64,000 nucleotides of DNA, taken from positions 682-64,681 of the forward strand of contig UQVH01000001.1 of the NCBI GenBank assembly GCA_900544535.1. Reading direction: 5' to 3'. The translations under genes were made by a program, and so were the position numbers. This DNA comes from an uncultured Bacteroidales bacterium (GTDB lineage Bacteria; Bacteroidota; Bacteroidia; Bacteroidales; Muribaculaceae). The notes beneath the pieces are model-generated. The model saw only the letters and a list, made by a program, of their open reading frames with translations. It was not told the origin of the DNA and searched no databases. Shown here piece after piece: positions 12,722-58,022 of the stretch (the first letter of the stretch is position 1; the number at the start of each line of letters is the position of its first letter).

Positions 12722-12906
12722 ACCCGCCCCCGATCAAAATGAATTGACTAATTTTGCATTCCTTCACACCAATTTAATTCCCGTTACGGCACAAATAGCC
12801 TGACTGCAACAAGAGAAATGAGTGACTTTTCTGATGGGGAACGCGTTGGTCACCGGGATTGTGGAGAGGATAGGGCTGCAGTTGTTGCGCTGGATGTGAC
12901 ATTTTG

Positions 12907-13806: not shown

Positions 13807-13815
13807 AGTGCAAAT

Positions 13816-14316: not shown

Positions 14317-14356
14317 ATTTTAATTCTCTAAAGAAGATGCGCGACACAAGGGTTAT

Positions 14357-24051: not shown

Positions 24052-24254
24052 AATGTTTTAATGAATTATTAAATTATTCAATGCAAAATTAGGTCTTCAC
24101 AGACATAAAACTGTTGTCTTTTCAATATTTCATTTGGTTTATAAAAGTCATAAAGCGCTATCTATCAAGCATGATTGTGTTAATTCATCGCCAATTGTTG
24201 TTTTTTATGCCATCCACCTGTATCACCGTCTTTAAATAAGACAGAAGAGCATCT

Positions 24255-24455
24255 TCACGCAAGTGTGCCTTCAAAAATCCAGTCCATTACAAGCACAAAT
24301 CCAAAACAGAAGACAACCCAGATCAAAAGGGTGAGCAAATAATATAGATATGGGCTTTTACAACGACTCTTAATTATCGGCTCTATATACCAAATTATAA
24401 ATAACGACGGTATCAGACTTATAATTATACCGACACATTCTTGATCATTAGACAT
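24255..24455 (-). CDS. Small 2-TM membrane protein (66 aa); paralog of 25031..25228
   Basis: Shared IIWYIEPIIKSRCK / ITHYIEPKIKSRYK and WIF(D/E) motifs. Confidence 0.35.
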   Translation of the reverse strand: MSNDQECVGIIISLIPSLFIIWYIEPIIKSRCKSPYLYYLLTLLIWVVFCFGFVLVMDWIFEGTLA

Positions 24456-24470
24456 CGGACTCCACTATTT

Positions 24471-24887
24471 TTATAATTCTGCGAAACCCAGGGAGGTAAG
24501 CAGGAAATAGATCAGCACTATCAGAGCCAATCCGCCAATATGACTGACGGCTTCCCTTGACAATTTCTTCCGGATCAGGCGCTTCATCCAGTGGTCAAAG
24601 GCTATTCCGAGGGGAGTGGAAAGACTCGCGCAGACAACGATTGTAAAGTATTTGTTGTGGAAAATCCGGTCTGTGCCTACAAGGAAGCCCGTACCGAGAA
24701 TAACGGCTGCGTCCACAACAACACAGAGCAGGATGGTCATCCACAACAGTTTGCGGACATTGATCGTCTCACCATGTTCAGCAATTACCCTCTCCGCTCT
24801 CAGCAGTCCGGTCCTTAAAATCGGTCCGCAGACCAAAAGCATCAGGCAGACGCACAGCGCAGTTATTAAAAACAGATTATAAGCCAT
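24471..24887 (-). CDS. Hypothetical polytopic membrane protein (138 aa)
   Basis: C-terminal half is homologous to the 174-aa lipoprotein (DRIF..YFT.V.CAS...PL...DHW...LIRKKL.....S.IGG.ALI....LL...GFAEL). A -7 box (minus) at ~24918-24930. Confidence 0.4.
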   Translation of the reverse strand: MAYNLFLITALCVCLMLLVCGPILRTGLLRAERVIAEHGETINVRKLLWMTILLCVVVDAAVILGTGFLVGTDRIFHNKYFTIVVCASLSTPLGIAFDHWMKRLIRKKLSREAVSHIGGLALIVLIYFLLTSLGFAEL

Positions 24888-25030
24888 AACTTTTGAATGA
24901 AATAATTTAGTTTCTCATTGCAAAATTACCTAATTATCCTACCCGACCCCCTTGTTTTTTCAATATTTATCTTGGTTTTCACGCGCTTTAAACGGCTGAT
25001 TTTCAAGCGTAACAATGTTAAATAAATTCA

Positions 25031-25228
25031 TCATTCTGTCTTCCAGTCAAAGATCCACAACAGCAGAAGAAAAACGACCGCAAAATTGACGGCCTCAACC
25101 AAAAAGATGGCGGCATAGCGATGGAGCCGCTTTTTATATCGCGATTTGATTTTAGGCTCGATGTAGTGTGTAATAAATTCAGCCGGCACCATGCTGAGAG
25201 CGGCGTTTATCCAGATAAAATCACTCAT
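25031..25228 (-). CDS. Small 2-TM membrane protein (65 aa); paralog of 24255..24455
   Basis: See the paralog. Confidence 0.35.
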   Translation of the reverse strand: MSDFIWINAALSMVPAEFITHYIEPKIKSRYKKRLHRYAAIFLVEAVNFAVVFLLLLWIFDWKTE

Positions 25229-25276
25229 AACGACAGGTTGATATAATTGTTCGGTTAATAATTTGACTGAATAAAA

Positions 25277-26044
25277 TTACAGATATTCCAGATAGGCGCT
25301 GATGGCCGAGGGATCAGGCAACTGGCGGATCTTGGTTTTGAGGCGGCGCTTGCGGTTGTAGACCGACTCGATTTTTTCGGCTTTCAGAAATACGGCGATA
25401 GCCGTGCTTGAAAATCCGAGGATCGAGTAGAGAAAGAGCTTGTAATCGTCGGCTTTCAGATCGGGAAGATCGCGGCGGAAACGCTCCATGACGCCGGACT
25501 GATAGCGGTTGACGGTTTCTTCAAGTTCAGCAATCCGGTCGGCAGACGAAAGGCGCTCGACAAGTTCGACGGCCTCGTTCGAGAGATTTTTGCGGGTCTG
25601 AGGAGAGGATTTTTCGTAATACTCGCGGCATTTTTCGTCCATTACGCGATATTCCTTGGTCAGCAGCTCGCGCAACAGGCTGTTGACCGCCGCGCTGTCG
25701 CGCTGACGGAGTTCGGTGATCTCACGTATGTTCTGACCGATCTGAAAATAATATTCGTCACGACGCAATTTGCGCCTGTACAAGATGATCCCAAAGGCCA
25801 CGGCACCGGAAAGGTAAATGACTTCAAGGGCTATCGTGAGACGGCGGATCATCCGCGAATGAGCGGCGCGTGTCTCGGTCAGCTCCCGCCGCAGACTTTC
25901 GATATCCATCGACTGTTGCTCCGGAGTGAGGGCGCCGGAATTTTCATCAGGCGCGCAAGAGACCATCCCGACCAACAGAAGCAGACAGATCAAGAACAGA
26001 CGGAAACGTTTCAATAGTGATATTTCGGCAGACGTCAAGCACAT
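25277..26044 (-). CDS. Hypothetical membrane-anchored coiled-coil protein with a possible C-terminal HTH; start revised to MCLTSAEIS...
   Basis: The six-frame ORF extends to 26362 as a Pro/Arg-rich stretch overlapping the GT2 gene. An internal ATG at 26044 gives an N-terminal hydrophobic signal/anchor (LFLICLLLLVGMVSC). The TAATTTTG -7 box (minus) at 26052-26059 is only ~8 nt upstream. Confidence 0.4.
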   Translation of the reverse strand: MCLTSAEISLLKRFRLFLICLLLLVGMVSCAPDENSGALTPEQQSMDIESLRRELTETRAAHSRMIRRLTIALEVIYLSGAVAFGIILYRRKLRRDEYYFQIGQNIREITELRQRDSAAVNSLLRELLTKEYRVMDEKCREYYEKSSPQTRKNLSNEAVELVERLSSADRIAELEETVNRYQSGVMERFRRDLPDLKADDYKLFLYSILGFSSTAIAVFLKAEKIESVYNRKRRLKTKIRQLPDPSAISAYLEYL

Positions 26045-30246: not shown

Positions 30247-31038
30247 TCAGAGCAGTTCCTGCATCATTGTGTCGATGGTGAAAATGCCTTTGCGTCCGGC
30301 GATCCACTCGGCGCCCATCACGGCTCCGAGGGCAAAACCGTCGCGGCTCTTGGCGCGGTGGGTGATCTCGATGGTGTCGACCGGCGAATCCCACTCGATC
30401 GTGTGGGTTCCGGGCACCTCGCCCTCGCGCAGACTCAGCACGGGAAGAGTGTCGGGGGCCATCACGGGTTTCTCCAGTCCGGCGGCGATCTGAGCGGGAG
30501 TCAGGGAGCAGTTGCTCTCATCGACGCTGACCATCCCCTCGTCGGCCCAGGAATTGACGCGCTCGTTCTCGGCGATGATCCCTTCGGCAAGGGTGATGGC
30601 AGTGCCTGAGGGATGGTCGAGCTTGTGGACGTGGTGGGTCTCATACATGTGCGGCCTGTACTGCGGCAGATGGCTCATGAGACGGGCGAGCTTGCGGTTG
30701 ACGATGTTGAACACATTGACGCCGATGCTGAAATTGCTCGAAGCCAGCAGAGCGCCGCCAAGCTCGGTGACACGCTTCTCGACCTCGGCGCGACGTGCGG
30801 CCCAGCCGGTCGATCCGCAGATGACGGGCACACCTGCCGCCGCAGCGCGCATCACATTGTCGGGGGCGGTCGAGGGAGTCGTGAACTCTATGGCAGCGTC
30901 GGCCGAAGCGAAAGCCTCGCCGTCGATATCGGCATTGTTATCCACATCAATGATCGCGACAATCTCATGGCCGCGTTCACGGGCGATGCGCTCGATGGCG
31001 TGACCCATCTTCCCGTAACCTATAAGGGCAATTTTCAT
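30247..31038 (-). CDS. dapB: 4-hydroxy-tetrahydrodipicolinate reductase
   Basis: Start at MKIALIGYGKMG (NAD-binding GxGxxG). The upstream extension of the six-frame ORF is unlikely. A -7 box (minus) at ~31110-31120. Confidence 0.9.
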   Translation of the reverse strand: MKIALIGYGKMGHAIERIARERGHEIVAIIDVDNNADIDGEAFASADAAIEFTTPSTAPDNVMRAAAAGVPVICGSTGWAARRAEVEKRVTELGGALLASSNFSIGVNVFNIVNRKLARLMSHLPQYRPHMYETHHVHKLDHPSGTAITLAEGIIAENERVNSWADEGMVSVDESNCSLTPAQIAAGLEKPVMAPDTLPVLSLREGEVPGTHTIEWDSPVDTIEITHRAKSRDGFALGAVMGAEWIAGRKGIFTIDTMMQELL

Positions 31039-31230
31039 AATGATCCGTAGAGAGTAAAATATCTGATTCTGACGGCCGATCCGGCCAGTCCGGACCGCAC
31101 CGGATGCAAAATTACACAAAATCTCCAATTTCAGCAATTTTCTTGACCGCCGGTCAGGGATATGTTGCATAACATATTTTCTGTGAGCGTTTTTTCGTGC
31201 GAAACGTTGTGAATTTAAAAAATTATCCCC

Positions 31231-31238
31231 TATCTTTG
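31231..31238 (+). promoter_or_regulatory. -7 box TATCTTTG for the SPFH operon
   Basis: TAnnTTTG ~95 nt upstream of the ATG at 31332. Confidence 0.35.
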
Positions 31239-31331
31239 CGTCGGTAGTCGATTTGATACTGTATATCAGTGACTTTTACATTTCTGCAACACACCGCACA
31301 CACCACTCTGTAAACCACAAACCAATCACCT

Positions 31332-32669
31332 ATGGCCATAATCGATCTTGTCAGCTGGCAGCCCACAGGCAATATCACCACCTATGCCTGGCGCTTTCCG
31401 GAAACCAATCTCAGCACCTATACTCAGCTGATCGTTGCCGAATCGCAGGAAGCCGTCCTCTTCTCGAAAGGACAGCTCATGGGCAAATTCGGGCCCGGAA
31501 AACACACGCTCAACACCGAGAACCTTCCCGTGCTCCGCAGCCTTTTCGGTATTCCTTTCGGAGGAAAAAACCCGTTCACGGCCGAGATATGGTTTGTCAA
31601 CAAGGTCCAGGTGTTCAACATCGACTGGCATGCGGGCAACATAAAGAACCACGACGCCGAATACAATGCGATGGTGCCGATCTACGCCGCCGGACAGTAC
31701 GGCCTGCGCATCACCGACACCGAGAAATTTCTCATCAAGTTCGTGGGCCGCAAGGAGGTCTTCACCGAAAACGACATGACCGAGCAGGGCCGCGGCGAAT
31801 TCATGAGCAAGGTCAAATCGGCCCTCATCAGCTTCATGCGCCAGAACAACCTCGGCATCAAGAGCATCGCGGCCTATCAGGACCAGCTCTCGACCTATCT
31901 ACACGGACAGATGAAAGCCTTCTGGGAAGACCTCGGACTGGAGCTTACGAAATTCTACATCAACGAGATCGACATCGACGACACCACGCCCGAAGGCGAA
32001 CGCGCCCGCGAAGCCATAGCCCAGCAGAGCGCCATGTCCATCACCGGCCACACCTGGCAGCAGGAACAGATGTTCGACACCGCCAACAATGCCATCGGTT
32101 CCATGGCCGGAGGCTTCGGCACCGGGGGCGACGGCTCGCTCCTCGGCGGCATCATGGCCATCAACATGATGAACGGTATGATGGGCGGTGGCGGCCGCAA
32201 CGGCGGTGGCCAGATGGGCCAGAGCATGATGAACCCGCAGTTCGAACAGCCCAATTTCCGCCCCGCCGCGGCTCCCGACTTCGGCGCGCAGCACACACAG
32301 GCACCGCGCCACGAGGGATCAGGCCCCGACCAGTCAGTCAAGATGGTCTACTGCTCAAACTGCGGAAAGAAATATCCCAACACCTCGCGTTTCTGTCCCA
32401 ACTGCGGCAACGAATATCACCCCTGTCCGAAATGCGGCACCGACAACAATCCCCACGCCAAACGCTGCGTAAGCTGCGGCACCCAGCTCGGCGCGGGAAC
32501 CTCCGGCGGACAGACCTGCCCGGCGTGCAACGCGCCCTTAGTCCCCGGAAGTGCTTTCTGCGGCAACTGCGGCCAGCGCATAGCCTCGTCGGACAACTGT
32601 CTGCGCTGCGGCGCTCCTCTGCCGCCCAACGTGAAATTCTGTCCCAAGTGCGGCAACCGGCGCTCGTGA
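31332..32669 (+). CDS. SPFH/Band-7 (COG4260, YdjI-like) domain protein fused to a Gly/Met-rich linker and four C-terminal zinc ribbons
   Basis: The N-terminal ~260 aa look like the virion-core-protein-like SPFH family (Band_7_1). C-terminal CSNCGKKYPNTSRFCPNCG, CPKCG...CVSCG, CPACN...CGNCG and CLRCG...CPKCG give 8 CxxC pairs (4 ribbons). Confidence 0.7.
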   Translation: MAIIDLVSWQPTGNITTYAWRFPETNLSTYTQLIVAESQEAVLFSKGQLMGKFGPGKHTLNTENLPVLRSLFGIPFGGKNPFTAEIWFVNKVQVFNIDWHAGNIKNHDAEYNAMVPIYAAGQYGLRITDTEKFLIKFVGRKEVFTENDMTEQGRGEFMSKVKSALISFMRQNNLGIKSIAAYQDQLSTYLHGQMKAFWEDLGLELTKFYINEIDIDDTTPEGERAREAIAQQSAMSITGHTWQQEQMFDTANNAIGSMAGGFGTGGDGSLLGGIMAINMMNGMMGGGGRNGGGQMGQSMMNPQFEQPNFRPAAAPDFGAQHTQAPRHEGSGPDQSVKMVYCSNCGKKYPNTSRFCPNCGNEYHPCPKCGTDNNPHAKRCVSCGTQLGAGTSGGQTCPACNAPLVPGSAFCGNCGQRIASSDNCLRCGAPLPPNVKFCPKCGNRRS

Positions 32670-32719
32670 CACCCACTCTCACCTCTTACTCCTCACAACC
32701 TAACCGTTGACTCTGCCTT

Positions 32720-33427
32720 ATGAAAAACTGGAATCTTCTTACCTGGATCTTGTTCATTGTCGGCGAAGCTCTCGTCATAGCCGGATTCTGCCTCTTCGGA
32801 CGCGGACTGCCCGACAATGTCTATTATCTCGACCTCACGGTCTCGACAGTGGTCTACATACTGCTGTTTCTCAACTTCGGGCGCCCGATGGTCAGCCTCA
32901 GCGACGAGAGCGGCAAAGATGTCGGCTCGCTCGGCATCAACTGGACCTTCTCGACGGCCTACGCCTTTCTGTCCGTGGCATGCATGATCGCACTTCCCTA
33001 CTGGGAACTCGGCTTTAAATACCAGTTCATCGCCCAGGCCGTATTGCTGTTCTTTCTGATCATGGGCATGGTTTTCGGACGTGAATCCGCTGACAAGGTC
33101 GGCGAGGTCTACCGCCGGGAGCAGGCCATGACCGGAGGACTCGACGCAGTGCGCCGTCAGATGCGCCGCCTCAACGACACTCTGGCCGTAAGCCGCGACA
33201 TCTCTCCCGACGTGCGCGGGCGCCTCGACCGTATCGGCGAATCGCTGCGCTATCTTGCTCCGTCCGACAATCCGGAAGCCGCGGAACTTGAAAAGGATAT
33301 GGCGGCAGCCATCGCCGACATTGACCGCGCGCTCCCCGACGCAGCACTCAACCGCGATCTGATCGACCGGCGCCTCACCGCCCTCGAACGCTACTGCGAA
33401 AACCGCCGCAACATCTACTCCCGATAA
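32720..33427 (+). CDS. Membrane protein (about 4 TM helices plus a cytoplasmic helical domain), possibly YdjH-like
   Basis: Hydrophobic N-terminal half and an Arg-rich helical C-terminal half. Sits between the SPFH gene and the coiled-coil genes. Confidence 0.45.
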   Translation: MKNWNLLTWILFIVGEALVIAGFCLFGRGLPDNVYYLDLTVSTVVYILLFLNFGRPMVSLSDESGKDVGSLGINWTFSTAYAFLSVACMIALPYWELGFKYQFIAQAVLLFFLIMGMVFGRESADKVGEVYRREQAMTGGLDAVRRQMRRLNDTLAVSRDISPDVRGRLDRIGESLRYLAPSDNPEAAELEKDMAAAIADIDRALPDAALNRDLIDRRLTALERYCENRRNIYSR

Positions 33428-33548
33428 AACCCGACACCCCGACGGCCGACGCCCCGAACCGATAGCGCCGGCCACTGATCCCACACCCTGACAATACCTT
33501 AAAAAACAACCGACTTTAATCCCCCTAAAAACCTATCAGACAAATCCT

Positions 33549-35750
33549 ATGAGTGGAAAAATCTTTCCCAGCTCAAGCAACATCTATCAGGATGAAGCTA
33601 AGATCTTGTTCAACTACTACAAGATGGCCGCAGAAAAAATCGTGAGCGAGGAGGAACGCATCGAGAGCGAGATCTCCGACCTGGAATCGCAACGCTCCGG
33701 CTATGAAGAACAGCTGTCGAAAGCCTGGTACTGGCTGCTGACAATCATTCTCTTCTTCATGTACTTCATCAAGAAGAAAGAATTTACTGAAAAGATCGAA
33801 GAAGTTGACGCAGAGATCAGCCGCAAGCGCAAGGAACACGCCGACATCTTCCGCGACTACAAGATCAGCCGCATGGGCGTGGCCTACGTCCCCGTGGCCG
33901 ATCAGGTGAAATATGACGACAAGAGCTTCATCGTCGACTTCACCGGCGAAGTCCCCGACAGCGAGGTGACTCTCCAGCTCCCCCGTCAGAACGAACTCCT
34001 CGTGGAGACCATCGGCAAAATCGAGAAACTCTCCACCGAAGCCCCGCTCGTCGAAACCTCGGAAGACACCGAGTCGATCGAGACCGACGACTACTCGACA
34101 TCCATACAGACAATCAACGAGCACGACTATCTCGGCGCCCTCGAACGCTCGTTGCGCACAGTCTCCTACTGCATGGAGGACATCGACACCGTCTCGGTGG
34201 CCCTTCCGCTCGTGCAGCGCGGCAGCCGCTATCTCGACTTCATCGAGGAATACTCCACCCGCACGGTACCCGAAGGCGCCCCGGTCATCAATGTGTTCGA
34301 CTCAGAGCGTTACGCCGAACGCATCAACCGCTTCCGCGAACTCAACAAACTGAAAGACTCGCTTTCGACCAAGACCCAGCAGTTCGAGGACGTCATCAAA
34401 TCGCTGATGAGCACAATGGCCGCCTCCGTGCAGGCCATCTCCGCACTGAAGATCGCGTCGGTCGACAAGGTGGTCTTCGAATCGAACCGCCTGCTCTACA
34501 ACATCCTGAAAGCACCCTACAACCACTACTCTCCCCTGCTCGAATACGACGAGATCCAGCGCATACGCAACGAGCGCTTCGATTACAGCCAGGACGTGCA
34601 GGACTACGAGCCTTTCAACCTGCGTCCCAGCTCGCGCGTGAGATTCAACCTCGTCACCGGCATGTGGACCGCCGAGGACGGCAACGTCACTTCAATGCCT
34701 TTCGGCATCCATCAGATCTACGAGGAGATCATGTCGCCCGTGGTCCAGAGCCTCATGGAAGAGAACCGCATCGAACGCCTGCGCATCTACAACCACATCA
34801 AGGACCAAAAGATCTCCTACCTCAACAAATGGCATCAGGACACCGACGCATTCTATCGCGCCAACCGTGCCGAAGGAGCCGACATCATCAATCTCATGCA
34901 GGAAAGCCTGCGTGAATACGTCGCCGCCTACAACACCCTAATCTCCCTCAGGAAAACCGAGGACTCGATGGCACAGAGCGGCGAGAATCTCGACGCCACA
35001 GTTGTCAATACCGTCGACAACACCGAAGAATCGATCGCCGCGTTCGAACTTCAGTCGCAGGAATTCCAGAAAGTACAGCAGGAGTTCGAGGAATATATGG
35101 ACCGCCTGAAAGAGGACATCGACCGCCGCGCCGAGGAGTTCGGCCATGTCGAATATTACGATGCCAAACTCCGCGACGGCCATTCCAACGAAGCCGCCGT
35201 GGCCGCAGGTGAGGTCCACGACCTCGACGAGCGCCGCCAGCCTCTCGCTGCCATCAACCCGCTCTTCGCCAAATCATCGCAGCTGCCCCCGCAGCCGAAG
35301 GTGGAGGACATCACTTTCGAGCACATTGCGCTCAATCTTCCGGCCATCTCCCGCGAGGCTCTGGCTTCGCTCGTTGAAATGGAAGAAAATCTCACAGCCG
35401 AAACTGAGGCAGCCGCCCGTCAGACTCCGCCGGCCGTACATGTCGCCGAGGAAGAAGAATCCGATGAAGAGGAACTCGATGACGAAGAACTCGACAACGA
35501 GGAACTCGACGAAGAGGAAGAACTCGACAACGAAGAGCTTGACGACGAAGAGCTTGACGAGGACGACGAGGAATACGATGAGGAGGAAGAGGACGAGATC
35601 GATGTTGTCGGCGATGACGAAGAGATCGGCGAATTTGACGCCGAAATCGGAGTCTTCGGCGAAGATGACGACAAGCCCTCAGGCGCCTGCCCCCCGCCAC
35701 TCCCTCCCGATGCCGACAAAGGCAATAACCAGTCTGATAACCAACCTTAA
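33549..35750 (+). CDS. Single-pass membrane coiled-coil protein (733 aa) with a polyacidic EELD-repeat C-terminal tail
   Basis: TM segment AWYWLLTIILFFMYFI near aa 60. Long helical regions. C-terminus EEEESDEEELDDEELDNEELDEEEELDNEELDDEELDEDDEEYDEEEEDEIDVVGDDEE. Confidence 0.5.
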   Translation: MSGKIFPSSSNIYQDEAKILFNYYKMAAEKIVSEEERIESEISDLESQRSGYEEQLSKAWYWLLTIILFFMYFIKKKEFTEKIEEVDAEISRKRKEHADIFRDYKISRMGVAYVPVADQVKYDDKSFIVDFTGEVPDSEVTLQLPRQNELLVETIGKIEKLSTEAPLVETSEDTESIETDDYSTSIQTINEHDYLGALERSLRTVSYCMEDIDTVSVALPLVQRGSRYLDFIEEYSTRTVPEGAPVINVFDSERYAERINRFRELNKLKDSLSTKTQQFEDVIKSLMSTMAASVQAISALKIASVDKVVFESNRLLYNILKAPYNHYSPLLEYDEIQRIRNERFDYSQDVQDYEPFNLRPSSRVRFNLVTGMWTAEDGNVTSMPFGIHQIYEEIMSPVVQSLMEENRIERLRIYNHIKDQKISYLNKWHQDTDAFYRANRAEGADIINLMQESLREYVAAYNTLISLRKTEDSMAQSGENLDATVVNTVDNTEESIAAFELQSQEFQKVQQEFEEYMDRLKEDIDRRAEEFGHVEYYDAKLRDGHSNEAAVAAGEVHDLDERRQPLAAINPLFAKSSQLPPQPKVEDITFEHIALNLPAISREALASLVEMEENLTAETEAAARQTPPAVHVAEEEESDEEELDDEELDNEELDEEEELDNEELDDEELDEDDEEYDEEEEDEIDVVGDDEEIGEFDAEIGVFGEDDDKPSGACPPPLPPDADKGNNQSDNQP

Positions 35751-35762
35751 AACTCCCCGACC

Positions 35763-36686
35763 ATGAAAAGTTTCGACTGTGTCATAGACACCCAACCGAT
35801 GGCCAGGGAGCTGGACCGCGTTTCGCAGCACGTCAACGGGACAACCACGGCGGTTGTCGGCATGAAAGTGGCCGTGCTCAAAGCCGAGGCGGACGCCGCC
35901 GACAATGTCTGCCGCAACGTCAACCGCGGATTCTATTCGCTCATCCACTCGCAGATCTCGCAGAAGATAGCCAAGTGGAAAAGCGAAGTGGACTCTCTGC
36001 TGCTTCAGCTCAACCAGCAGCGCCGCCAGATCAACAACATAAAGGGGCAGATGGAGCGCGACTACGGCTCGATCACCGCCCGCTATACCAAACTGTTCAC
36101 CTCGCTCAACCGCGCCCTCAGGCGCCGCGTCTACGAGCTTGACAAACCCGCTTTCAAGTTTGCCGTCACCGAGATCGACACCCTCTCCAACCGCACCCTT
36201 CAGCTCTCGGCCACCGTGCCTGTCTCCCAGAACGAGTCGCTGCTGACGTCGCAAAAAATCATGGCCTCCAACCTGAAATACCGCGGCAGCCGTGTGATCT
36301 CGCTGATGAAGGATTTTCTCACCGACCTCAACCGCCAGAAGGCAATGACGGGCCGTGTGCTGCTCGACAAGGGCATTTCCACCGGCCTTGAAAACCGGCT
36401 GATCCCCGTGATCGTCTGGGAGGGCTGCGGCGGACGTCTCGAAGGTGATCTTGAGCATTTCACCATGCCTGAGACCTGCCTTTCGGACCGTACACGCAAC
36501 GCCATCACCAACCACATCGCCACATCCAACGTGCAGTTCCCCTGGACGGATGCCGCCGACCCCGACAAGCGCGTGGCCGACGGCTTCAAGGCCATGCTCG
36601 GCGATTTCGAGGCCACCGACCGCATCAAGGAGACGATGGGGCGCCTTTTCGAAGCTAACCGGATTCAAACCTTCAACGCCCGATAG
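35763..36686 (+). CDS. Hypothetical coiled-coil protein (307 aa), paralog 1
   Basis: Shares RQ(I/M)...DYG...ARYTK(L/I)FT.LN..L..RV(Y/F)ELDK.(A/V)F with the next gene. 13-nt gap from the upstream gene. Confidence 0.5.
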   Translation: MKSFDCVIDTQPMARELDRVSQHVNGTTTAVVGMKVAVLKAEADAADNVCRNVNRGFYSLIHSQISQKIAKWKSEVDSLLLQLNQQRRQINNIKGQMERDYGSITARYTKLFTSLNRALRRRVYELDKPAFKFAVTEIDTLSNRTLQLSATVPVSQNESLLTSQKIMASNLKYRGSRVISLMKDFLTDLNRQKAMTGRVLLDKGISTGLENRLIPVIVWEGCGGRLEGDLEHFTMPETCLSDRTRNAITNHIATSNVQFPWTDAADPDKRVADGFKAMLGDFEATDRIKETMGRLFEANRIQTFNAR

Positions 36687-36689
36687 CCT

Positions 36690-37700
36690 ATGAGTTACAG
36701 CAGATCAATCACGGTAGACATCGCGATCCCCTACTCCGGCTCCGTGAGCAACAAGGCGGGCACCATGTACTATTCGGGCACGGCCCGCGAGACGGTGCGC
36801 TTCAATGTCGAGGTCGACACGAGAGCCTTCGACAGCTCGGTCGACAGCTGCACGCACCACGTCAACGCCCTGACCGAATCGGTCGTGGCAACCGAAGTGG
36901 CCCAGGTAGCTTCGATCCATAAAAACGCCGACACTGTCGGGCAGACCATCATCTCAGGCTTCTTCAAGACCGTCCGCTCGGAACTCAGCCAGCAGATGAT
37001 GCAGCTCAAAAGTTCCATCGACGCCACCCTGCTCCATCTCAACCAGCTGTCGAAACGCTGTCTCGACAAGCGCCGCCAGATGGAGACCGACTACGGGCGC
37101 GTGGCCGAACGCTACACCAAGATCTTCACCGAGCTTAACAAGGAGCTTGAAAACCGCGTGTTCGAGCTGGACAAGGCCGTGTTCCACATCGAGGATGAGT
37201 GCCGCGACTGCTCCGAACGCTCCGTCAGTTCCGGTCTTGCGGGCGACGCCGCCGTGGCCTCGGCCGAAAACAGCCGCCTCCAGGCCATTCTCGGCGCCAC
37301 GCTTGCCAAACGCCGCGCCCTCGACACGCTCCGCCGCGCCCGCACCTTTCTGGAGCGCCAGGTGGCCACCAAGACGCTGATCAACAACAGTCTCCGCGAC
37401 TCCGGCGAGGCATCGTCGATCTATGTGCCCCTCTGCGTCGTATGCTCCGAGGGCGCAGGCGGCAAGATATCCGCCGAGGTTTATCAGAACCCGCAGATGC
37501 CCACCGACGACAACCGCGACATCATCGCCTTCATGGACGCCCGCCGGTGGCACCCTATGCCTGAGAGCGAGATGAACATCATCAGAAAGTTCTACGCCCA
37601 TCAGGTCAGCGGCGCAATCACCACTGACAGTCCCCACGACAGCCGCGTCCGCGCTTATCTCAACAAATTTATCAACGAAAACACTATTTCCTGTGTCTGA
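36690..37700 (+). CDS. Hypothetical coiled-coil protein (336 aa), paralog 2
   Basis: See paralog 1. 4-nt intergenic gap. Confidence 0.5.
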   Translation: MSYSRSITVDIAIPYSGSVSNKAGTMYYSGTARETVRFNVEVDTRAFDSSVDSCTHHVNALTESVVATEVAQVASIHKNADTVGQTIISGFFKTVRSELSQQMMQLKSSIDATLLHLNQLSKRCLDKRRQMETDYGRVAERYTKIFTELNKELENRVFELDKAVFHIEDECRDCSERSVSSGLAGDAAVASAENSRLQAILGATLAKRRALDTLRRARTFLERQVATKTLINNSLRDSGEASSIYVPLCVVCSEGAGGKISAEVYQNPQMPTDDNRDIIAFMDARRWHPMPESEMNIIRKFYAHQVSGAITTDSPHDSRVRAYLNKFINENTISCV

Positions 37701-37706
37701 ACCATC

Positions 37707-38675
37707 ATGAAAGAATTAACCGAAATCCGTGTCAACGGAACTGACATACATCTTCAGGACAACCTCGTGCGCAGCTCGATCCTGCCTGAAAAAACCGCGG
37801 AACTCAGCCGCAACATCATCTTCAAAGGCAACACCATTGTCGAAGGTCCCGTCTTCGGCAACCGCATCGAAGTGCGGCAGGGTCCGCTCGAAATCCAGGG
37901 AGCGGCCTTCACGCAGAACGAGCTTTATGTGGCCGGAGACGCCGAAGGCGAGATCACCTTCAAAAAATGTGTAGGCTCGGCCAACTCCATCGTCTCGCGC
38001 GGCGACAAGGCCCGGCTGATGTTTCTCGCCGACATCAACGCCAAGAGCGTGGCGCTGACCAACGCCTTTGTGGCCGGCAGCATCTATGCCGACGACATCA
38101 CGCTGGAAAACTGTGTGGTGATCGGCGGTGTCTTCGCCACGCAGGACGCCGACATCCGCAATTCGATGGTCGGCACCTTCAACGCTCCCTCCGTGCGCCT
38201 CTCAGGCATAAACTACCTGCTGTTGCCGAGCGCCTTCTCAGTCGAACCGGTAAGCGCCACCCCCGCCACCATGCTGTTCAATCTCAGCCTCGCCGACCTC
38301 GGCGCCCTCTACAAGCAGCTGCCCCAGGCCGAAGATTCGGGCAAGATCCTCATCGACCTCACAGTCGACGAGCTTCTCTCGACCCTCGCCAACGAGGAAG
38401 TCACCAAAGTGCTCCGCAGCTACACGGTGATCGGCAAGGTCCTTGCCGCCGACCTGGTCAATACCGACAAGTTCCAGAACCACTTCCTTCTGACCGCCGC
38501 CGCCCTCGGCCCGCAGCTGTTGAAATCGTATGACCTCGGCACCGGCCGCGACGGCAAACCCGCAGTGCTCACCGTCGAGAAGATCCGCGACTTCCTCTTC
38601 GACATCCTCCACGGCAAAATCGAAGTGCGCACCATGTCCGGCTCGTTCAACATCTCCGACATCACCGGCAGATAA
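37707..38675 (+). CDS. Beta-helix repeat protein (bactofilin/Toastrack-like)
   Basis: N-terminal 200 aa show ~18-20-residue repeats with alternating hydrophobics and Gly/Asn/Asp turns (NIIFKGNTIVEGPVFGNRIEVRQGPLEIQGAAF...VAGSIYADDITLENCVVIGGVFATQDADIRNSMVGTF). Confidence 0.45.
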   Translation: MKELTEIRVNGTDIHLQDNLVRSSILPEKTAELSRNIIFKGNTIVEGPVFGNRIEVRQGPLEIQGAAFTQNELYVAGDAEGEITFKKCVGSANSIVSRGDKARLMFLADINAKSVALTNAFVAGSIYADDITLENCVVIGGVFATQDADIRNSMVGTFNAPSVRLSGINYLLLPSAFSVEPVSATPATMLFNLSLADLGALYKQLPQAEDSGKILIDLTVDELLSTLANEEVTKVLRSYTVIGKVLAADLVNTDKFQNHFLLTAAALGPQLLKSYDLGTGRDGKPAVLTVEKIRDFLFDILHGKIEVRTMSGSFNISDITGR

Positions 38676-38923
38676 TCACTGCAAAACCACCGGATAATCA
38701 CCCCAAAACGCTCTCCGCCACCTTTATTTTTTATTGGAAGATGTTGCAAAACCGGTTACATACCTGGCCCTTGCGACATCACCTGATCTCAATCTCTGAT
38801 AGTAACACAATTATAATTTTCCAGATATATAAAATAGACTTCCTCATCTAAGACGGAGAGACGAAAGAGAGAGACAGACGCCCCAAAGCCTCTGTCTCTC
38901 TTGCTTTTCACAACTTCTTAGAG

Positions 38924-39616
38924 TTATATCTGCAATTTTCTTGTTAGGTAATTATTATTTATTCTTAGCCTTAAAACACATATACCTTTAGGTAACATAT
39001 ATTTATCTATTGTTATCCGAGGCTCGGTGTGCTTTGTCGAATAAACCAATTGCCCTTGCATGTTATAAATTTCAACATTTGCCAACTTTTCCGAGGGATT
39101 ATCTATAATAACCGACACATCCGTAACAGTTATTTCAAAATCATCGCAGACGGATTCTATTTTGCTTTGGCCTAACAAGAGTTCCTTGTCTGCCTCCAAG
39201 ACATAATCATTGGAACATACCGGTATAAACCGAGCTAATAACTCGTTTCTCAATGAATCCTTATAACAGTCAAATCTAAAATATGTGCCCCACGAAACAT
39301 CCACATATTCAGTCTCAATTATTTCATTATCTATTTTTAAATCACGCGCAGATACATATTTTATTGATTCTATATCATTTTGATAGGGACGAGATTTTAA
39401 AATTACGATCCTTTGGGCTCCCTTAATAGAAAATTTCATTTTTAAGCGGCCCTCAATAGAGTATATTTTACCAGGTATAATATCCTCATTATTATAGTTA
39501 TAATCAACCTCCAGCATCTCAAAATCAAAACCATCCGGAAAGTGTTGATTTTGTCCATAAATATTGAGGATGCTACACAAAACAGACAGTATTGATACTA
39601 TTGCACGACCGACCAT
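38924..39616 (-). CDS. Small secreted protein with a T9SS C-terminal sorting domain, in an AT-rich islet
   Basis: Signal peptide. C-terminus VEIYNMQGQLVYSTKHTEPRITIDKYMLPKGICVLRLRINNNYLTRKLQI matches the T9SS CTD pattern. GC is much lower than in the flanks. Confidence 0.5.
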   Translation of the reverse strand: MVGRAIVSILSVLCSILNIYGQNQHFPDGFDFEMLEVDYNYNNEDIIPGKIYSIEGRLKMKFSIKGAQRIVILKSRPYQNDIESIKYVSARDLKIDNEIIETEYVDVSWGTYFRFDCYKDSLRNELLARFIPVCSNDYVLEADKELLLGQSKIESVCDDFEITVTDVSVIIDNPSEKLANVEIYNMQGQLVYSTKHTEPRITIDKYMLPKGICVLRLRINNNYLTRKLQI

Positions 39617-39863
39617 ATAATAATCTTCTTTATTTTTACTGAATTATTTACATCCGTTATTTAATAATAACAACGCGGTTTCATACGATTTTATTAGCAT
39701 TTTCGCAAATATAATGACTATTATCAACATATTTACCCTCTATTCTTATAATTATATATCAATTACTACAAATATTAATAAAATACTCCATAAATATTCA
39801 CGTCAATAACTGTCTTCTGAGGATTGAGTCCAAATTTTATTTCGCGGGAGGGAGAATTTGTGT

Positions 39864-39871
39864 TAAATTTG
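39864..39871 (+). promoter_or_regulatory. -7 box TAAATTTG for the transglutaminase-like gene
   Basis: TAnnTTTG ~100 nt upstream of the ATG at 39973. Confidence 0.3.
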
Positions 39872-39972
39872 CAGACGGGCCGCGGGGAGCGGTCCGCCAC
39901 GGTTGACTTTGTGTCTGTCTGACCGGCTGAATTATCCATAACCTGAACCATAACCTGTCACTGTCCATCGCA

Positions 39973-41349
39973 ATGAAAAGTTTTCTGAAACTGCCGCTTC
40001 TGTGTGCGGTCATGTGCGCCGCTTTGTCCGGCGAGGCAAAATCCTATGTCCACGATACCAAATATGACTGGAGCGGACTCGCCAACTCCATCACGTCGCC
40101 GTCGAAACCGGACTATGAGAAAGCCCGCGACATCTACACATGGCTGACGAAAAACATCTCCTACGATACAAGCTATTCAATCCATACCGCCGACGAGACT
40201 TACGAACAGAAGCGCGGCGTCTGCCAGGGCTACTGCGAGATGTTCTACCGCCTGGGCGAGGCCGTAGGGCTGCGGACTGACATCATCTTCGGCAAATCGA
40301 AAAACCACGATGGAACAGTCAGCGACATGGGCCACGCATGGCTCTTCGTCTATGTCGACGGCAATTCCGGTATACTCGTAGACCCCACCTGGGGCGCCGG
40401 AGGTGTGGATGACGGCAAATTCAAGAGCGAACCGACCGACGCCTGGTTTAACGTCAGCCCCGAATGGCTCATATTCAGCCATTTCCCCGACGAGGCGGAA
40501 TATCAGCTACTTGACTCGCCCCTGAGTTTCGACAGCTTCCGGAGAATATCCTATCTCCACCCCGCGCTGCGCGACTACGGCCACAACGGCAAGGAACTGC
40601 TCGCCTCGTCGCTCAACGGCCACACGCCACAGCTTCCCGAATATTACTCTTCGGCCATCGCGAGAAACACCACCGGCATAAAGATGCCGACCGAGAAAGA
40701 GCTGAGAGTCGGAACTCCCTACGAATTCTATGTACTCCCCACCGGACAGAACGATTTCGTGATCATCAACGGCGAGGAATATGACACCGACTGGGTGCGC
40801 TCAGGCAAACAGGCCGCCATCCGCTTCATACCCGCCGCGCCAGGTCCGCTGACCGTCGGCGTAAGCACGGGCGACTCGAATTATTCCAGCCTTGTGAAGT
40901 ACACCGTAGCCCAACCCACCGCGCAGGACATCGCTAGACTTGAAGAGGCCACCCCGCTGCGCTCGCCAAGCCTCACGGGCCTGACGAACTACAACCGCAA
41001 GACACTTGAAAACTGGGGTATAGATCCGCACAAACTGCTCGCTGCTGTGAAAGCCGAAGGGATTTCGGCGCTGCCGAGATTCAACGCCAATATCGAAAGC
41101 CGGGCGGTCGACGTCCCCCTCAACGGACGGCTGAAAACCGGCGCGACCTACACCTTCCGCTTCACACCCGGCAAAGGACGCGATTTCGCGGCCATCAACG
41201 ACAAGATCTGGGTCAAGGACTGGACGCAGAACCCCGACGGCAGCATCTCCATCACCGTCACCCCCACCGTCGCCGGCGAACTGAAAATCTCAGCCGTCAT
41301 CGACGACACCAACAGCTTCTGGCCCATCCTCACCTACACCGTCGACTGA
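39973..41349 (+). CDS. Secreted transglutaminase-like cysteine peptidase domain protein
   Basis: Signal peptide. Catalytic Cys in GVCQGYCEMFYRL, His in GHAWLFVYVDG, and downstream Asp (LVDPTWG). Ig-like C-terminal domains. Confidence 0.7.
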   Translation: MKSFLKLPLLCAVMCAALSGEAKSYVHDTKYDWSGLANSITSPSKPDYEKARDIYTWLTKNISYDTSYSIHTADETYEQKRGVCQGYCEMFYRLGEAVGLRTDIIFGKSKNHDGTVSDMGHAWLFVYVDGNSGILVDPTWGAGGVDDGKFKSEPTDAWFNVSPEWLIFSHFPDEAEYQLLDSPLSFDSFRRISYLHPALRDYGHNGKELLASSLNGHTPQLPEYYSSAIARNTTGIKMPTEKELRVGTPYEFYVLPTGQNDFVIINGEEYDTDWVRSGKQAAIRFIPAAPGPLTVGVSTGDSNYSSLVKYTVAQPTAQDIARLEEATPLRSPSLTGLTNYNRKTLENWGIDPHKLLAAVKAEGISALPRFNANIESRAVDVPLNGRLKTGATYTFRFTPGKGRDFAAINDKIWVKDWTQNPDGSISITVTPTVAGELKISAVIDDTNSFWPILTYTVD

Positions 41350-41534
41350 TTTCTTTGTGACGGAGGTGCGAAAAGTCATGATTTTGTTGTAATTTTGCCG
41401 TGAGGATAGGGAAGCGCCGGTGTGAAATCACCGGGGAGGTGACGGAGTGAACTTACGTGGTTTACAGGCGTTACTCTTCTGACGGAGCACATCAAAGGTG
41501 TGTCCACAGACTATCCCCTCTTTACAGCAGAATT

Positions 41535-42398
41535 ATGAAAAAGGCAATCTACATCGGAGAACTCTCACTCAACATATCGGTCTGTCCCGACGGCTCGGCG
41601 CAGACTGGAGTGGGCGACTGGGCCGTGAACGCGGCTCTGCTTGACGGACGCATGGAAGTCCCGACCGTATGGGTCGGCGAGGCTGCCGCAGGAACCGTCG
41701 GCGACCTCATCGTGAAGACACTGGAAAACGCCCGCGTGGATGTAGCCTCGATCGACCGTTTCACCGAGGGTGTGAGTCCCGTCAGAATCTTCGCCGAGGG
41801 TGACGACAGCACCAAAGTGGACCACAGCCGTTTTCCCGCCGAACCTGTCAACGCCATCTGGCCGCGGATCGACGAAGGCGACATCGTCGTCTACGGGTCC
41901 TACATGGCCCTTGAGGACCGCAACCACGCGCGTCTGCTCGATCTGCTGCGCCATGCCAAAGCCCGCAAGGCCTTCCTGGTCTACCTGCCATATTTCGAAT
42001 CGCATCAGGTTCCGAGGATCACACGCGTGATGCCCTCGGTCTTCGACTGTCTCGAACTGGCGGACCTCATCGTGGCCCGCGACGCCGACATCCGCGCCGT
42101 CTTCGCAGGCAAGGACACCGACGCCATCTTCAAGGACCATCTGCTCTTCTACTGCCGCCGCTTCCTCCACATAGATCCGGCCGAAAAGAAACTGCGCTTC
42201 TTCGACGGAGATGAATCCTGGAGTCTCCTCTGCCACAAGACGGACAACACCGAGCTGCAATGGAGCGCTGGGGTACTCGCAGGCGCCGTCAGGGCGCTCA
42301 CCGAAGGTAAGCGCGATCCGGACGAGATCATGAACTTCGCCAACGAGACGGCCCACAGCGACCTCGCCGCCGGCATCAGCCATCCCTGCTCGCGCTGA
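41535..42398 (+). CDS. PfkB-family carbohydrate kinase (ribokinase-like)
   Basis: Start at MKKAIYIGE, with TAATTTTG at 41383-41390. C-terminal anion-hole-like motif in AGVLAGAVRALTEG. Confidence 0.55.
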   Translation: MKKAIYIGELSLNISVCPDGSAQTGVGDWAVNAALLDGRMEVPTVWVGEAAAGTVGDLIVKTLENARVDVASIDRFTEGVSPVRIFAEGDDSTKVDHSRFPAEPVNAIWPRIDEGDIVVYGSYMALEDRNHARLLDLLRHAKARKAFLVYLPYFESHQVPRITRVMPSVFDCLELADLIVARDADIRAVFAGKDTDAIFKDHLLFYCRRFLHIDPAEKKLRFFDGDESWSLLCHKTDNTELQWSAGVLAGAVRALTEGKRDPDEIMNFANETAHSDLAAGISHPCSR

Positions 42399-58017: not shown

Positions 58018-58022
58018 AAAAA

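Follow-up and report, generated by a model that had tools for sequence, protein, structure and literature searches.

Six adjacent genes in a 64,000-nucleotide stretch of DNA from an uncultured Bacteroidales bacterium (hereafter, the window) constitute one real operon that is conserved across the phylum Bacteroidota. Judged from their sequences, the operon joins a known type of membrane-organising protein, an SPFH domain carrying four zinc ribbons (ZnR), with five proteins from undescribed families. Its features are the following.

31231-31238, + strand: -7 promoter box of the Bacteroidota type, TATCTTTG, 93 nt upstream of g1
31332-32669, + strand: g1, 445 aa, soluble SPFH protein that has a low-complexity linker rich in Gly and Met and ends in four zinc ribbons
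31389-31985, + strand: SPFH domain of g1 (aa 20-218; Pfam Band_7_1)
32343-32657, + strand: zinc-ribbon array of g1 (aa 338-442; four ribbons with eight CxxC; Pfam Zn_Ribbon_1)
32720-33427, + strand: g2, 235 aa, protein with four transmembrane (TM) segments, from its hydrophobic segments, and a cytoplasmic helical C-terminal domain of ~115 aa, motif LRYLSPxNNxEA
33549-35750, + strand: g3, 733 aa, large membrane-anchored cytoplasmic protein with a conserved core of 610 aa and a variable polyacidic tail
33714-33770, + strand: hydrophobic membrane segment in g3, aa 56-74, with KKK after it
35448-35672, + strand: polyacidic tail of g3 (aa 634-708), imperfect repeats with a 15-nt period
35763-36686, + strand: g4, 307 aa, long-helix protein and core member, paralogous to g5 but lacking its N-terminal beta-hairpin
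36690-37700, + strand: g5, 336 aa, paralog of g4
36696-36815, + strand: amphipathic beta-hairpin conserved in g5 (aa 3-42) and missing in g4
37707-38675, + strand: g6, 322 aa, predicted right-handed beta-helix (aa 1-180) with an alpha/beta C-terminal domain

A six-gene operon conserved across Bacteroidota

The preliminary description of this region had placed six co-directional genes at 31332-38675, and open reading frames g1 to g6 were found there on the + strand, separated in order by 50, 121, 12, 3 and 6 nt. The single upstream -7 box that it proposed is likewise present, TATCTTTG being the sole + strand occurrence of TAnnTTTG within 31001-38950, with none in the internal gaps. Since shuffled sequences yielded 0.54 such motifs per region by chance, the position of the box supports a promoter, but the box count does not. 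The proposal of one operon held when gene neighbourhoods were compared across Bacteroidota: all six genes kept the same order and strand in 55 of the 60 loci with enough upstream sequence to be tested, an arrangement conserved far beyond chance. These loci come from many orders, the carriers including Bacteroidales, Flavobacteriales, Chitinophagales, Sphingobacteriales and Marinilabiliales. At another three loci the divergence of g2 precluded its detection, and an ORF of 232-234 aa occupied its position. Median intergenic gaps across loci ranged from 5 to 24 nt.

When genomes of different orders were compared, nucleotide identity of 87-90% was restricted to a unit of 7.5-7.8 kb; this cassette of ~7.5 kb has been transferred from one order to another. 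The flanks of the operon are unrelated, the 105 immediate neighbours being housekeeping or metabolic genes that span 149 Pfam families, with neither a defence gene nor an integrase among the 25 most frequent of these families. Matches were found in at least 222 of 185,579 species genomes, a lower bound given by a pattern-limited search, and the operon was not found in phage, plasmid or IMG/VR collections.

The encoded proteins and their nearest counterparts

Pfam bore out the reading of g1 as a Band_7_1 SPFH domain fused to a quadruple zinc ribbon (Band_7_1, 5.6e-37; Zn_Ribbon_1, 5.1e-23 over four stretches), and scores of 127.9 bits for Band_7_1 versus 27.7 bits for Band_7 proper point to the former subfamily rather than the latter. 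No TM-like segment was found in g1. Its identity within the 80 loci is 51-86%; the eight CxxC of the four ribbons are kept in 63 of 65 orthologs, and the part from aa 301 onward, which includes them, carries a net charge of +8 and is basic in every one of the 65 (+4 to +10). With its soluble Band_7_1 SPFH domain connected through a low-complexity linker to zinc ribbons at the C-terminus, g1 has the architecture of Bacillus subtilis YdjI (SamI), which is described as a soluble SPFH protein that likewise ends in a zinc ribbon after a low-complexity linker (PMC8581546).

Among the closest known systems is the envelope-stress operon PspA-YdjGHI of B. subtilis, renamed PspA-SamGHI. According to two reports, two membrane proteins recruit the soluble YdjI, which itself recruits a polymer, and loss of YdjG/H delocalises peptidoglycan synthesis, which provides a phenotypic link to the localisation of this process (PMC8581546; bioRxiv 10.64898/2026.02.06.704340). 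Besides the architecture of the SPFH protein, both systems share zinc ribbons (also in YdjG in B. subtilis) and an SPFH gene adjoining those of integral membrane partners and of a cytoplasmic protein that forms polymers, the latter being putative here. However, no PspA gene was found nearby, as the preliminary description had remarked; g1 carries four ribbons instead of one; the putative polymer parts, g3 to g6, come from undescribed families; and g2 shows neither the TPM domain of YdjH nor the ZnR/NTF2 architecture of YdjG. The protein g2 is the least conserved of the six (24-38% identity beyond its closest relatives), and nearly all of 23 aligned orthologs are 236 aa long. It had been described as YdjH-like. 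YdjH is defined by its TPM domain (PMC11237479) and neither this domain nor any Pfam family was found in g2, so that with its four TM segments and 115-aa cytoplasmic helical domain g2 is not YdjH-like.

Flotillins FloA/FloT with NfeD and the HflK/C-FtsH cages also encode an SPFH domain with a dedicated membrane partner and have a presumed membrane-microdomain or cage role. In contrast to them, g1 is of the Band_7_1 type, lacking a TM or hairpin anchor and the flotillin coiled-coil tail, and the window operon contains no NfeD or FtsH partner.

No match to g3 was found in Pfam or PDB. It had been taken for a single-pass coiled-coil protein, of which the hydrophobic segment and the polyacidic tail were recovered, but it is not essentially a coiled coil; over residues 1-610 identity across orders is 57-79%, with many invariant aromatic motifs. 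The tail varies among orthologs from 0 to 222 aa in length and from +2 to -115 in charge. A short Trp-rich amphipathic stretch replaces the hydrophobic segment in L048, L052, L054, L066 and L086, and distant homologs have two TM helices. In such distant homologs a CPxC...CPxC pattern aligns with YNHYSPxLE...WTAEDG in the window protein, whose core embeds a degenerate zinc ribbon.

That g4 and g5 are paralogs, as first proposed, was confirmed by 33% identity (E 2e-34). No known family was found for g4, which is matched by a 320-aa homolog in L005 at E 5e-6. The predicted fold of g5 comprises an N-terminal amphipathic beta-hairpin of 2x19 residues, a helix of 135 residues, a return helix of 50 residues and a small C-terminal alpha/beta domain; the model has a low pTM (0.27) and matches nothing specific, the best Foldseek matches being non-significant (E >= 0.45) stem hairpins of beta-barrel pore-forming toxins.

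Identity of g6 is 61-91% in the 80 loci and 61-75% across orders. Its predicted right-handed beta-helix agrees with the bactofilin-like part of the earlier assignment; the Toastrack part fell away, no DUF4097 match being found in g6. The residues conserved throughout the family are mostly Gly, Pro and hydrophobic, which together with the predicted helix fits a structural rather than catalytic role. Bactofilin cytoskeletons position cell-wall enzymes, as BacA/CcmA do with peptidoglycan hydrolases. On the other hand, g6 scores 14 bits against a Pfam Bactofilin cut-off of 27.9, its predicted helix is about twice as long and capped by a conserved alpha/beta domain of 140 aa, it has obligatory partners in g3 and g4/g5, and its polymerisation is putative. 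Proteins g2 to g6 had no significant match in Pfam, NCBIfam, PADLOC, PHROGs or PDB sequences and a literature search found no paper on this system, in agreement with the initial impression that no characterised system has this architecture.

A three-gene core with interchangeable companions

Genes g3, g4/g5 and g6 constitute an older three-gene core, newly recognised here, that also occurs entirely without an SPFH protein, a further difference from PspA-SamGHI. In L005, L006, L008, L089 (candidate division KSB1), L090, L091, L093, L094 and the P0368 locus, the homologs of g3, g4 and g6 lie side by side in this sequence. Accessory genes around this triad are interchangeable, with zinc-ribbon proteins as its constant companion: many g6-like proteins carry ribbons at the C-terminus, L074 has them in its g3 tail and distant g3-like proteins embed them, and genes 3' of the triad in L005, L093 and L094 begin with N-terminal ribbons. 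After the triad come runs of ZnR-TM proteins whose periplasmic domains differ (Fib_succ_major, YARHG, SH3_3), and a TPR-2xAAA ATPase of the CbbX/SpoVK/EccA type (AAA_lid_6) precedes it in three loci, which fits an assembly that might be built and taken apart.

Peptidoglycan enzymes recur as well. Genuine insertions into the six-gene operon are limited to a ZnR-TM-SH3_3 protein with a YkuD L,D-transpeptidase in L037 and a VanY carboxypeptidase in L061; downstream of the triad stand Peptidase_M15_4 in L005 and L008, a Transgly gene in L089 and a kinase with SH3_3 in L008. Neither the window operon nor 58 of the 60 complete six-gene loci contain such enzymes, so the peptidoglycan link rests on five loci. 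The preliminary description had missed the SPFH-less core, the constant zinc-ribbon partner and the peptidoglycan enzymes beside or inside the module.

There is precedent for small cytoplasmic ribbons of membrane proteins, those of ZitP-PopZ in Caulobacter and of GltJ in Myxococcus focal adhesions docking membrane proteins onto a cytoplasmic scaffold or regulator (PMC11135422). Here, N-terminal ZnR-TM proteins, the ribbon-bearing g1 and g6-like proteins always accompany the scaffold genes; docking is putative, an SPFH protein bears the ribbons as a fourfold array, and no PopZ, MglA/B or GYF domain is present.

Possible functions

We tentatively favour a reading in which the six proteins would form one complex at the cytoplasmic face of the inner membrane, serving cell-envelope maintenance. 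Its core would be the old three-protein module, with g3 as a membrane anchor bearing a large cytoplasmic domain, the duplicated long-helix proteins g4/g5 probably as a heteromeric coiled coil, and the bactofilin-like beta-helix of g6 probably as the lattice- or polymer-forming unit. Proteins with small zinc ribbons would dock on this core: in the Bacteroidota version g1, which g2 and/or g3 might retain at the membrane much as YdjG/H do with YdjI, and in other versions the ZnR-TM proteins with periplasmic domains, where the TPR-AAA+ ATPase would probably remodel the assembly. The assembly might serve to organise a patch of membrane and, above it, the enzymes that remodel peptidoglycan. Against this stands the hydrophobic anchor of g3, which is not universal among orthologs. 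Rarity and horizontal transfer would also be atypical of an envelope function of the housekeeping kind and are commoner among accessory systems.

The same cassette transfer between orders, with the low count of 222 species genomes in the pattern-limited search, could speak for an anti-phage or abortive-infection module, in which the scaffold would sense infection at the membrane and an effector, for example the g5 beta-hairpin assembled via its coiled coil, would permeabilise the inner membrane. Distant triads adjoin a type I R-M system and DUF3800 (L008), RelE/HTH toxin-antitoxin and AbiEi genes (L090) and transposases and integrases (L005); the exchange of accessory modules, here an AAA+ ATPase or a kinase matching PADLOC PD-T4-6 kinase models at 2.5e-32, is a typical trait of conflict systems, the tail of g3 is hypervariable and the best Foldseek matches of g5 are to pore-toxin stems. 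Nevertheless, those matches are non-significant, g3 and g6 are very highly conserved across orders, and no meaningful PADLOC match was obtained for g1 to g6 or for the triad proteins of L005 and L008. Nuclease, NADase, protease and other classical effector domains are not present either and, with the housekeeping or metabolic neighbours and the absence from the phage, plasmid and IMG/VR collections, a defence role seems unlikely.

We consider quite unlikely the Psp-like membrane repair put forward initially, whereby the SPFH protein would recruit g4/g5, as functional or very divergent ESCRT-III/PspA analogues, to coat and seal damaged membrane. It draws on the likeness of g1 to YdjI/SamI, the recruiter of PspA, on the predicted long helical hairpins of g4/g5 and on known PspA partners, which include Band-7 proteins, zinc ribbons and AAA+ ATPases (PMC11237479). 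The helical proteins encoded with a repeat-domain AAA+ ATPase in three related loci are reminiscent of ESCRT-III with Vps4 and of PspA with AAA+ proteins, and this suggests ATP-driven remodelling of the assembly. However, g4/g5 resembled neither ESCRT-III nor PspA when compared by sequence, profile or fold, and the ATPase, unlike Vps4, is of the AAA_lid_6 type with TPR in place of MIT and is absent from the window operon.

That ATPase at the head of three triad loci, and the ZnR-TM runs after the triad, could also be read as a trafficking or assembly machine, such as a chaperone platform or an apparatus that exports membrane proteins tagged with zinc ribbons, with the scaffold and an EccA/SpoVK-like double AAA+ ATPase handling these clients. 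Band-7 proteins are thought to be assembly chaperones (PMC11237479). This appears improbable, as the six-gene version contains neither the ATPase nor obvious client genes, and no channel-forming or secretion family was found. Finally, the idea that the genes share no joint function and are neighbours by accident of annotation or synteny, for which nothing specific speaks beyond five of the six proteins being unannotated, is effectively refuted by the conserved order in several orders amid unrelated flanks, the tight gaps and the joint transfer as one 7.5-kb unit.

Organisation of the operon and its gene products

The preliminary description of this region had proposed six co-directional genes sharing one upstream -7 box, and both points were borne out by our analyses. 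All six genes were recovered as + strand open reading frames with exactly the boundaries proposed, separated from g1 to g6 by gaps of 50, 121, 12, 3 and 6 nt, and a single Bacteroidota-type -7 box (TAnnTTTG) lies ahead of g1. The operon is flanked upstream by housekeeping genes (DapB, signal peptidase I, WbqC-like protein and glycosyltransferase), and downstream by genes for a T9SS-tail protein and a transglutaminase-like protein, here counted with the housekeeping flanks.

Features of the operon (window coordinates) and range of protein identity to the window in related loci, closest relatives left out
31231, + strand: -7 box TATCTTTG upstream of g1, sole copy on the + strand in 31001-38950
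31332-32669, + strand: g1, 445 aa, SPFH domain and zinc ribbons; 51-71%
32720-33427, + strand: g2, 235 aa, membrane protein; 24-38%
33549-35750, + strand: g3, 733 aa, protein with polyacidic tail; 57-79% (aa 1-610)
35763-36686, + strand: g4, 307 aa, paralog of g5; 42-64%
36690-37700, + strand: g5, 336 aa, paralog of g4; 29-49%
37707-38675, + strand: g6, 322 aa, predicted beta-helix protein; 61-75%

The description of g1 as an SPFH domain fused to four zinc ribbons was confirmed by Pfam, with Band_7_1 (PF13421) matching aa 20-218 at 127.9 bits (cut-off 24, E 5.6e-37) and, beyond a Gly/Met-rich linker, Zn_Ribbon_1 matching in four stretches. No TM-like segment was found in g1, and eight CxxC motifs occur in 63 of 65 orthologs. 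The closest characterised system to the operon is PspA-YdjGHI/SamGHI of B. subtilis, in which YdjI is described as a soluble protein without membrane anchor, bearing a stretch of low complexity and, C-terminally, a zinc finger or ribbon (PMC8581546). The g1 protein has this YdjI/SamI architecture, being an anchorless SPFH protein with a low-complexity linker and C-terminal zinc ribbons, but differs from it in that no operon is shared with PspA. In agreement with the earlier claim that PspA is missing, PspA_IM30 was absent from the Pfam matches of g1-g6, and tblastn with E. coli PspA, a search of low sensitivity, matched neither the 64-kb window nor any of 94 related loci.

The proposal that g2 resembles YdjH/SamH, a TPM-domain membrane protein, was rejected, since Pfam gave no TPM match and only DUF7553 (E 0.028). 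The g2 product appears as a four-TM protein with hydrophobic N-terminal helices and a cytoplasmic helical C-terminal domain.

The g3 protein carries a single hydrophobic segment (aa 56-74; window 33714-33770) and a polyacidic tail. Its anchor is replaced by a short Trp-rich stretch (SSWWNRIKLWFQGKLKK) in five orthologs (L048, L052, L054, L066 and L086; L-numbers denote related loci from other genomes), and distant g3-like proteins carry two TM helices together with a CPxC...CPxC motif, so that the mode of membrane attachment of g3 seems not to be fixed. At the positions of this motif, Bacteroidota g3 proteins show an invariant YNHYSPxLE...WTAEDG, which, as read from the aligned sequences, is a putative degenerate embedded zinc ribbon. 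The tail (window 35448-35672; columns 650-900 of the g3 ortholog alignment) is hypervariable, ranging from 0 to 222 aa with net charges from +2 to -115. Capnocytophaga and some Muribaculaceae lack it altogether; in about eight orthologs it terminates in a conserved helix-extended-helix-like motif (weak Rho_N match, E 0.026), in L074 it bears three zinc ribbons, and in the window it is encoded by imperfect repeats of 15-nt period (35447-35644). An electrostatic pairing of this acidic tail with the basic C-terminal part of g1 was considered and rejected, given that their charges showed no correlation (r 0.13, 65 loci) and that the tail is dispensable.

The preliminary description had named a TelA-type module as one case that would undo its proposal, and Pfam gave no TelA, TerB or TerB_C match for the six proteins or for 27 g3 orthologs. 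A UniRef record labels the Dysgonomonas termitidis ortholog of g3 (P0466) as a 'TerB-C domain-containing protein', a name rejected after hmmscan against Pfam at E<=1 gave no TerB match and which probably stems from the acidic tail. Searches of PDB with a 27-sequence g3 profile, and with the g3, g4, g6 and g1 sequences, returned only ribosomal-type zinc ribbons and acidic-tail noise, while the matches listed in a profile search with g3 and its distant homologs were close orthologs only.

The paralogs g4 and g5 share 33% identity (E 2e-34). Their suggested kinship to PspA or ESCRT-III was rejected: neither protein matched PspA_IM30 or Snf7 in Pfam at E<=1, hhalign of a 76-sequence g5 profile against E. 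coli PspA, a query which itself matches PspA_IM30 at 9e-49, gave a probability of 0.27% (E 0.22), and the ESCRT-III fold, in which alpha3-alpha5 come after an alpha1-alpha2 hairpin, was recognised in neither protein. At its N-terminus, g5 carries a hairpin (aa 3-42; window 36696-36815) that is amphipathic and strongly conserved, with one aromatic/hydrophobic face and one Ser/Thr/Gly-rich face (motifs YSGSVS and SYSGTA). Its top Foldseek matches, all non-significant, are pore-toxin stems, and the hairpin could extend a beta-sheet of g6 or insert into the membrane. For g6 itself, the proposed beta-helix held as regards the fold, a right-handed beta-helix of bactofilin type being predicted, but not as regards family, the Bactofilin profile (PF04519) remaining below threshold in Pfam (14 bits, cut-off 27.9, E 0.061) and Toastrack (DUF4097) being absent from the matches at E<=1.

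Overall, g2-g6 showed no significant family in Pfam, NCBIfam, PADLOC or PHROGs. Their homologs are all named 'hypothetical protein' and none carries a precomputed Pfam domain; in PHROGs only the zinc ribbons of g1 found matches among g1-g6, and no description of the six-gene operon was found in the literature.

Conservation and transfer of the operon

For two g5 homologs that we looked up, one in Parabacteroides and one in a second Muribaculaceae lineage, the neighbourhood comprises the same six genes, with differing flanks. A scan with the g6 alignment (one genome per species) found 222 genomes, a count that depends on exact peptide patterns. All 80 retained loci belong to Bacteroidota, with carriers among abundant gut lineages (Muribaculaceae/Duncaniella, Alistipes, Parabacteroides, Barnesiella), oral Capnocytophaga and environmental Bacteroidota; the list further includes Tannerellaceae, Dysgonomonas, termite-gut Prevotellaceae, Draconibacterium, Labilibaculum, Saccharicrinis, Lutibacter, Chitinophaga, Sphingobacteriales and Lentimicrobium. 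Conservation of gene order, which had been suggested as a check, was confirmed with the six window proteins as tblastn queries: of 60 loci with enough upstream sequence, 55 contain all six genes in the same order, with median gaps of 5-24 nt. Three of the other five loci have a right-sized ORF at the position of g2, which is diverged there, and g1 is missing from the remaining two.

The flanks of the window operon recur only in the two MAGs closest to it, one from Duncaniella and one from Muribaculaceae. In the other loci, 105 immediate neighbours span 149 Pfam families, each in no more than five neighbours, and no defence or integrase family occurs among the 25 most frequent. The g6 protein is 98-100% identical among loci labelled Chitinophagales, Dysgonomonadaceae and Bacteroidales and the isolate Labilibaculum filiforme, and 96-98% identical among one Lutibacter, one Sphingobacteriales and one other Bacteroidota locus. 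At the nucleotide level, identity reaches 87-90% from ~290 bp upstream of g1 to ~360 bp downstream of g6, and the sequence beyond these borders is unrelated between genomes. Because identity is confined to the operon and the flanks are unrelated, the operon appears to move as a self-contained cassette of 7.5-7.8 kb, which points to recent horizontal transfer between orders or classes. These high-identity copies (L054, L056, L057 and L060, and also L071, L076 and L082) come from different orders or classes, MAG taxonomy labels being possibly imperfect and L060 being an isolate.

No recognisable mobility gene is present in the cassette. Its borders, examined for structured RNAs and tRNA att sites, showed no Rfam match, and the only tRNA is a tRNA-Ser located downstream, in L082. 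An origin from phages, plasmids or viruses was rejected, since tblastn with g6 found no match among 50,697 phage records and 72,556 plasmids, and IMG/VR contained no relative. L054, a Chitinophagales MAG, has 191-nt direct repeats of 85% identity (2396-2586 and 10027-10217), one on either side of the operon; the downstream copy contains a -7-box-like TAAAACTTTG and is kept in L060, L057 and L056. No tRNA, Rfam family or convincing ORF accounts for these repeats, for which no counterpart was found in the window or in most other loci.

The window also differs from its relatives downstream of g6. Whereas in L009 (Duncaniella) and L010 (Muribaculaceae) the conserved downstream gene lies ~300-430 bp after g6, here it occupies 41457-42398, behind ~2.7 kb of extra sequence (38676-41456) encoding the T9SS-tail protein (38924-39616, - strand) and the transglutaminase-like protein (39973-41349). 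The 38001-40000 bin has a GC content of 44% against ~58% around it, and this low GC, together with the absence of the stretch from the closest relatives, indicates that it is probably a recent insertion. Two further stretches of low GC (24001-26000 and 58001-60000; 45% against a background of ~58%) may be other recently acquired segments.

The core triad and its companions

An exhaustive search with g6 yielded 298 representative clusters. The distant members, one of them from candidate division KSB1, share ~30% identity and the beta-helix, and often end in a zinc ribbon. Their neighbourhoods always contain three genes in the same order, coding for a protein of 540-680 aa, one of 300-336 aa and the g6-like protein, and BLASTP related these, in that order, to g3 (E 3e-15 over 459 aa), g4 (E 5e-6) and g6 (E 1e-26). 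The recurrence of these ordered homologs beside distant g6 indicates that g3, g4/g5 and g6 form an older core; judged by sequence similarity, the six-gene form is this core triad with g1, g2 and a duplicated coiled-coil gene apparently added.

Zinc ribbons always accompany the core, whether in g1, at the C-termini of many g6-like proteins (including the L006 variant, which has no SPFH gene immediately upstream), in the L074 g3 tail or in proteins encoded after the triad. Those directly following it in L005, L093 and L094 start with N-terminal zinc ribbons, and several combine them with a TM helix and periplasmic domains (Fib_succ_major, YARHG). A TPR and double AAA+ ATPase (AAA_lid_6) is encoded directly upstream of the triad in three loci.

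Other companions relate to the cell wall. The only real insertions within the six-gene operon occur in two loci, both between g2 and g3 and both encoding cell-wall proteins, namely a zinc ribbon-TM-SH3_3 protein with a YkuD L,D-transpeptidase in Draconibacterium and a VanY carboxypeptidase lipoprotein in a Prevotellaceae MAG. After the triad, L005 and L008 both carry Peptidase_M15_4, L089 a monofunctional transglycosylase, and L008 also a Ser/Thr kinase with SH3_3, the association with peptidoglycan being based on five loci.

The surroundings of some distant triads are defence-like or mobile: L008 has type I R-M and DUF3800, L090 has toxin-antitoxin and AbiEi genes, and L005 has transposases. 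Directly after the L090 triad (11438-15071), an AAA_5 (MoxR-like) ATPase, a 235-aa protein and a DUF2201_N putative metallopeptidase are encoded, with SAM synthetase and an AbiEi-like gene further downstream and a RelE/HTH pair and RecBCD upstream; these post-triad genes may be either an alternative set of accessories or a defence system lying next to the triad.

Candidate roles of the operon and the triad

Since g1 shares the YdjI/SamI architecture of PspA-SamGHI, we propose, tentatively and as a possibility worth weighing, that the six genes encode a sub-membrane scaffold organising a membrane patch and cell-wall enzymes, a reading in which only gene content, conservation, predicted folds and the statistics on neighbouring genes are more than inference. 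According to this proposal, g1 would be held at the membrane by g2 and/or g3, a sub-membrane lattice would be built of g3 with g4/g5 and g6, partners would attach to it through zinc ribbons acting as docking tags, and the assembly would organise the membrane patch together with the overlying cell-wall enzymes. In B. subtilis, YdjI is reported to be recruited by two membrane proteins and itself to recruit the polymer PspA, and peptidoglycan synthesis is reported to be mislocalised when YdjG/H are lost (PMC8581546; bioRxiv 10.64898/2026.02.06.704340). Docking through zinc ribbons has precedents in ZitP-PopZ and GltJ (PMC11135422).

It is conceivable, though rather doubtful, that the triad represents an unrecognised class of bacterial sub-membrane cytoskeleton or organiser, a self-contained spreading cassette older than Bacteroidota, as the KSB1 member could suggest. 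Its lattice would combine a zinc-ribbon protein anchored in the membrane with a coiled-coil and a beta-helix protein. Diverse partners might plug into this lattice via small zinc ribbons, be it an SPFH ring, periplasmic proteins that bind or modify peptidoglycan, or a kinase, and in some lineages an AAA+ ATPase might remodel it.

A role of the operon in anti-phage defence or abortive infection appears unlikely. PADLOC-DB 2.0 gave no meaningful match of g1-g6 to defence-system models: g4 alone scored, weakly and through its coiled coil, against the ZorA tail (8.5e-4, 16 bits) and PbeC (0.011), and the L005 and L008 triad proteins likewise gave only weak ZorA-tail matches (E 6.8e-4 to 0.037). 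Transfer of the cassette between genomes, the few genomes that carry it, its modular accessories and the defence-island contexts of some distant triads would suit such a role, but this absence of a PADLOC signal, the very high sequence conservation, the housekeeping flanks and the lack of a recognisable effector argue against it. The Psp/ESCRT-III analogy drawn for g4/g5 in the preliminary description was negative in every test of family membership that was run; it is improbable, though conceivable as a functional analogy.

The principle of an SPFH protein working with membrane partners and a cytoplasmic polymer is already known; the novelty lies at the level of the parts, the five families g2-g6 and the core triad being undescribed. 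These families have hundreds to thousands of members each (226 to >2,000 matches in the searches run), and g3 and g6 are 57-79% and 61-75% identical across orders, yet all five lack a name, and no Pfam model, solved relative or paper was found for them. Should the scaffold proposal hold, SPFH proteins would work with polymers other than PspA, the very common and unexplained N-terminal zinc ribbons of bacterial membrane proteins would be docking tags, and a handle would be gained on the coupling of membrane and cell-wall maintenance in Bacteroidota. A defence role would instead mean a new membrane-acting immune system in the dominant gut phylum, and both readings are directly testable with existing Bacteroidota genetics.

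A further association was observed in L094, a Bacteroidota contig. Three genes past its triad, following the zinc-ribbon protein and a Peptidase_M50B-like protein, a 221-aa protein (6170-6835) carries the third and fourth domains of GldM (E 1e-8 and 3e-9), which makes a link of this triad to the periplasmic gliding/T9SS machinery possible.
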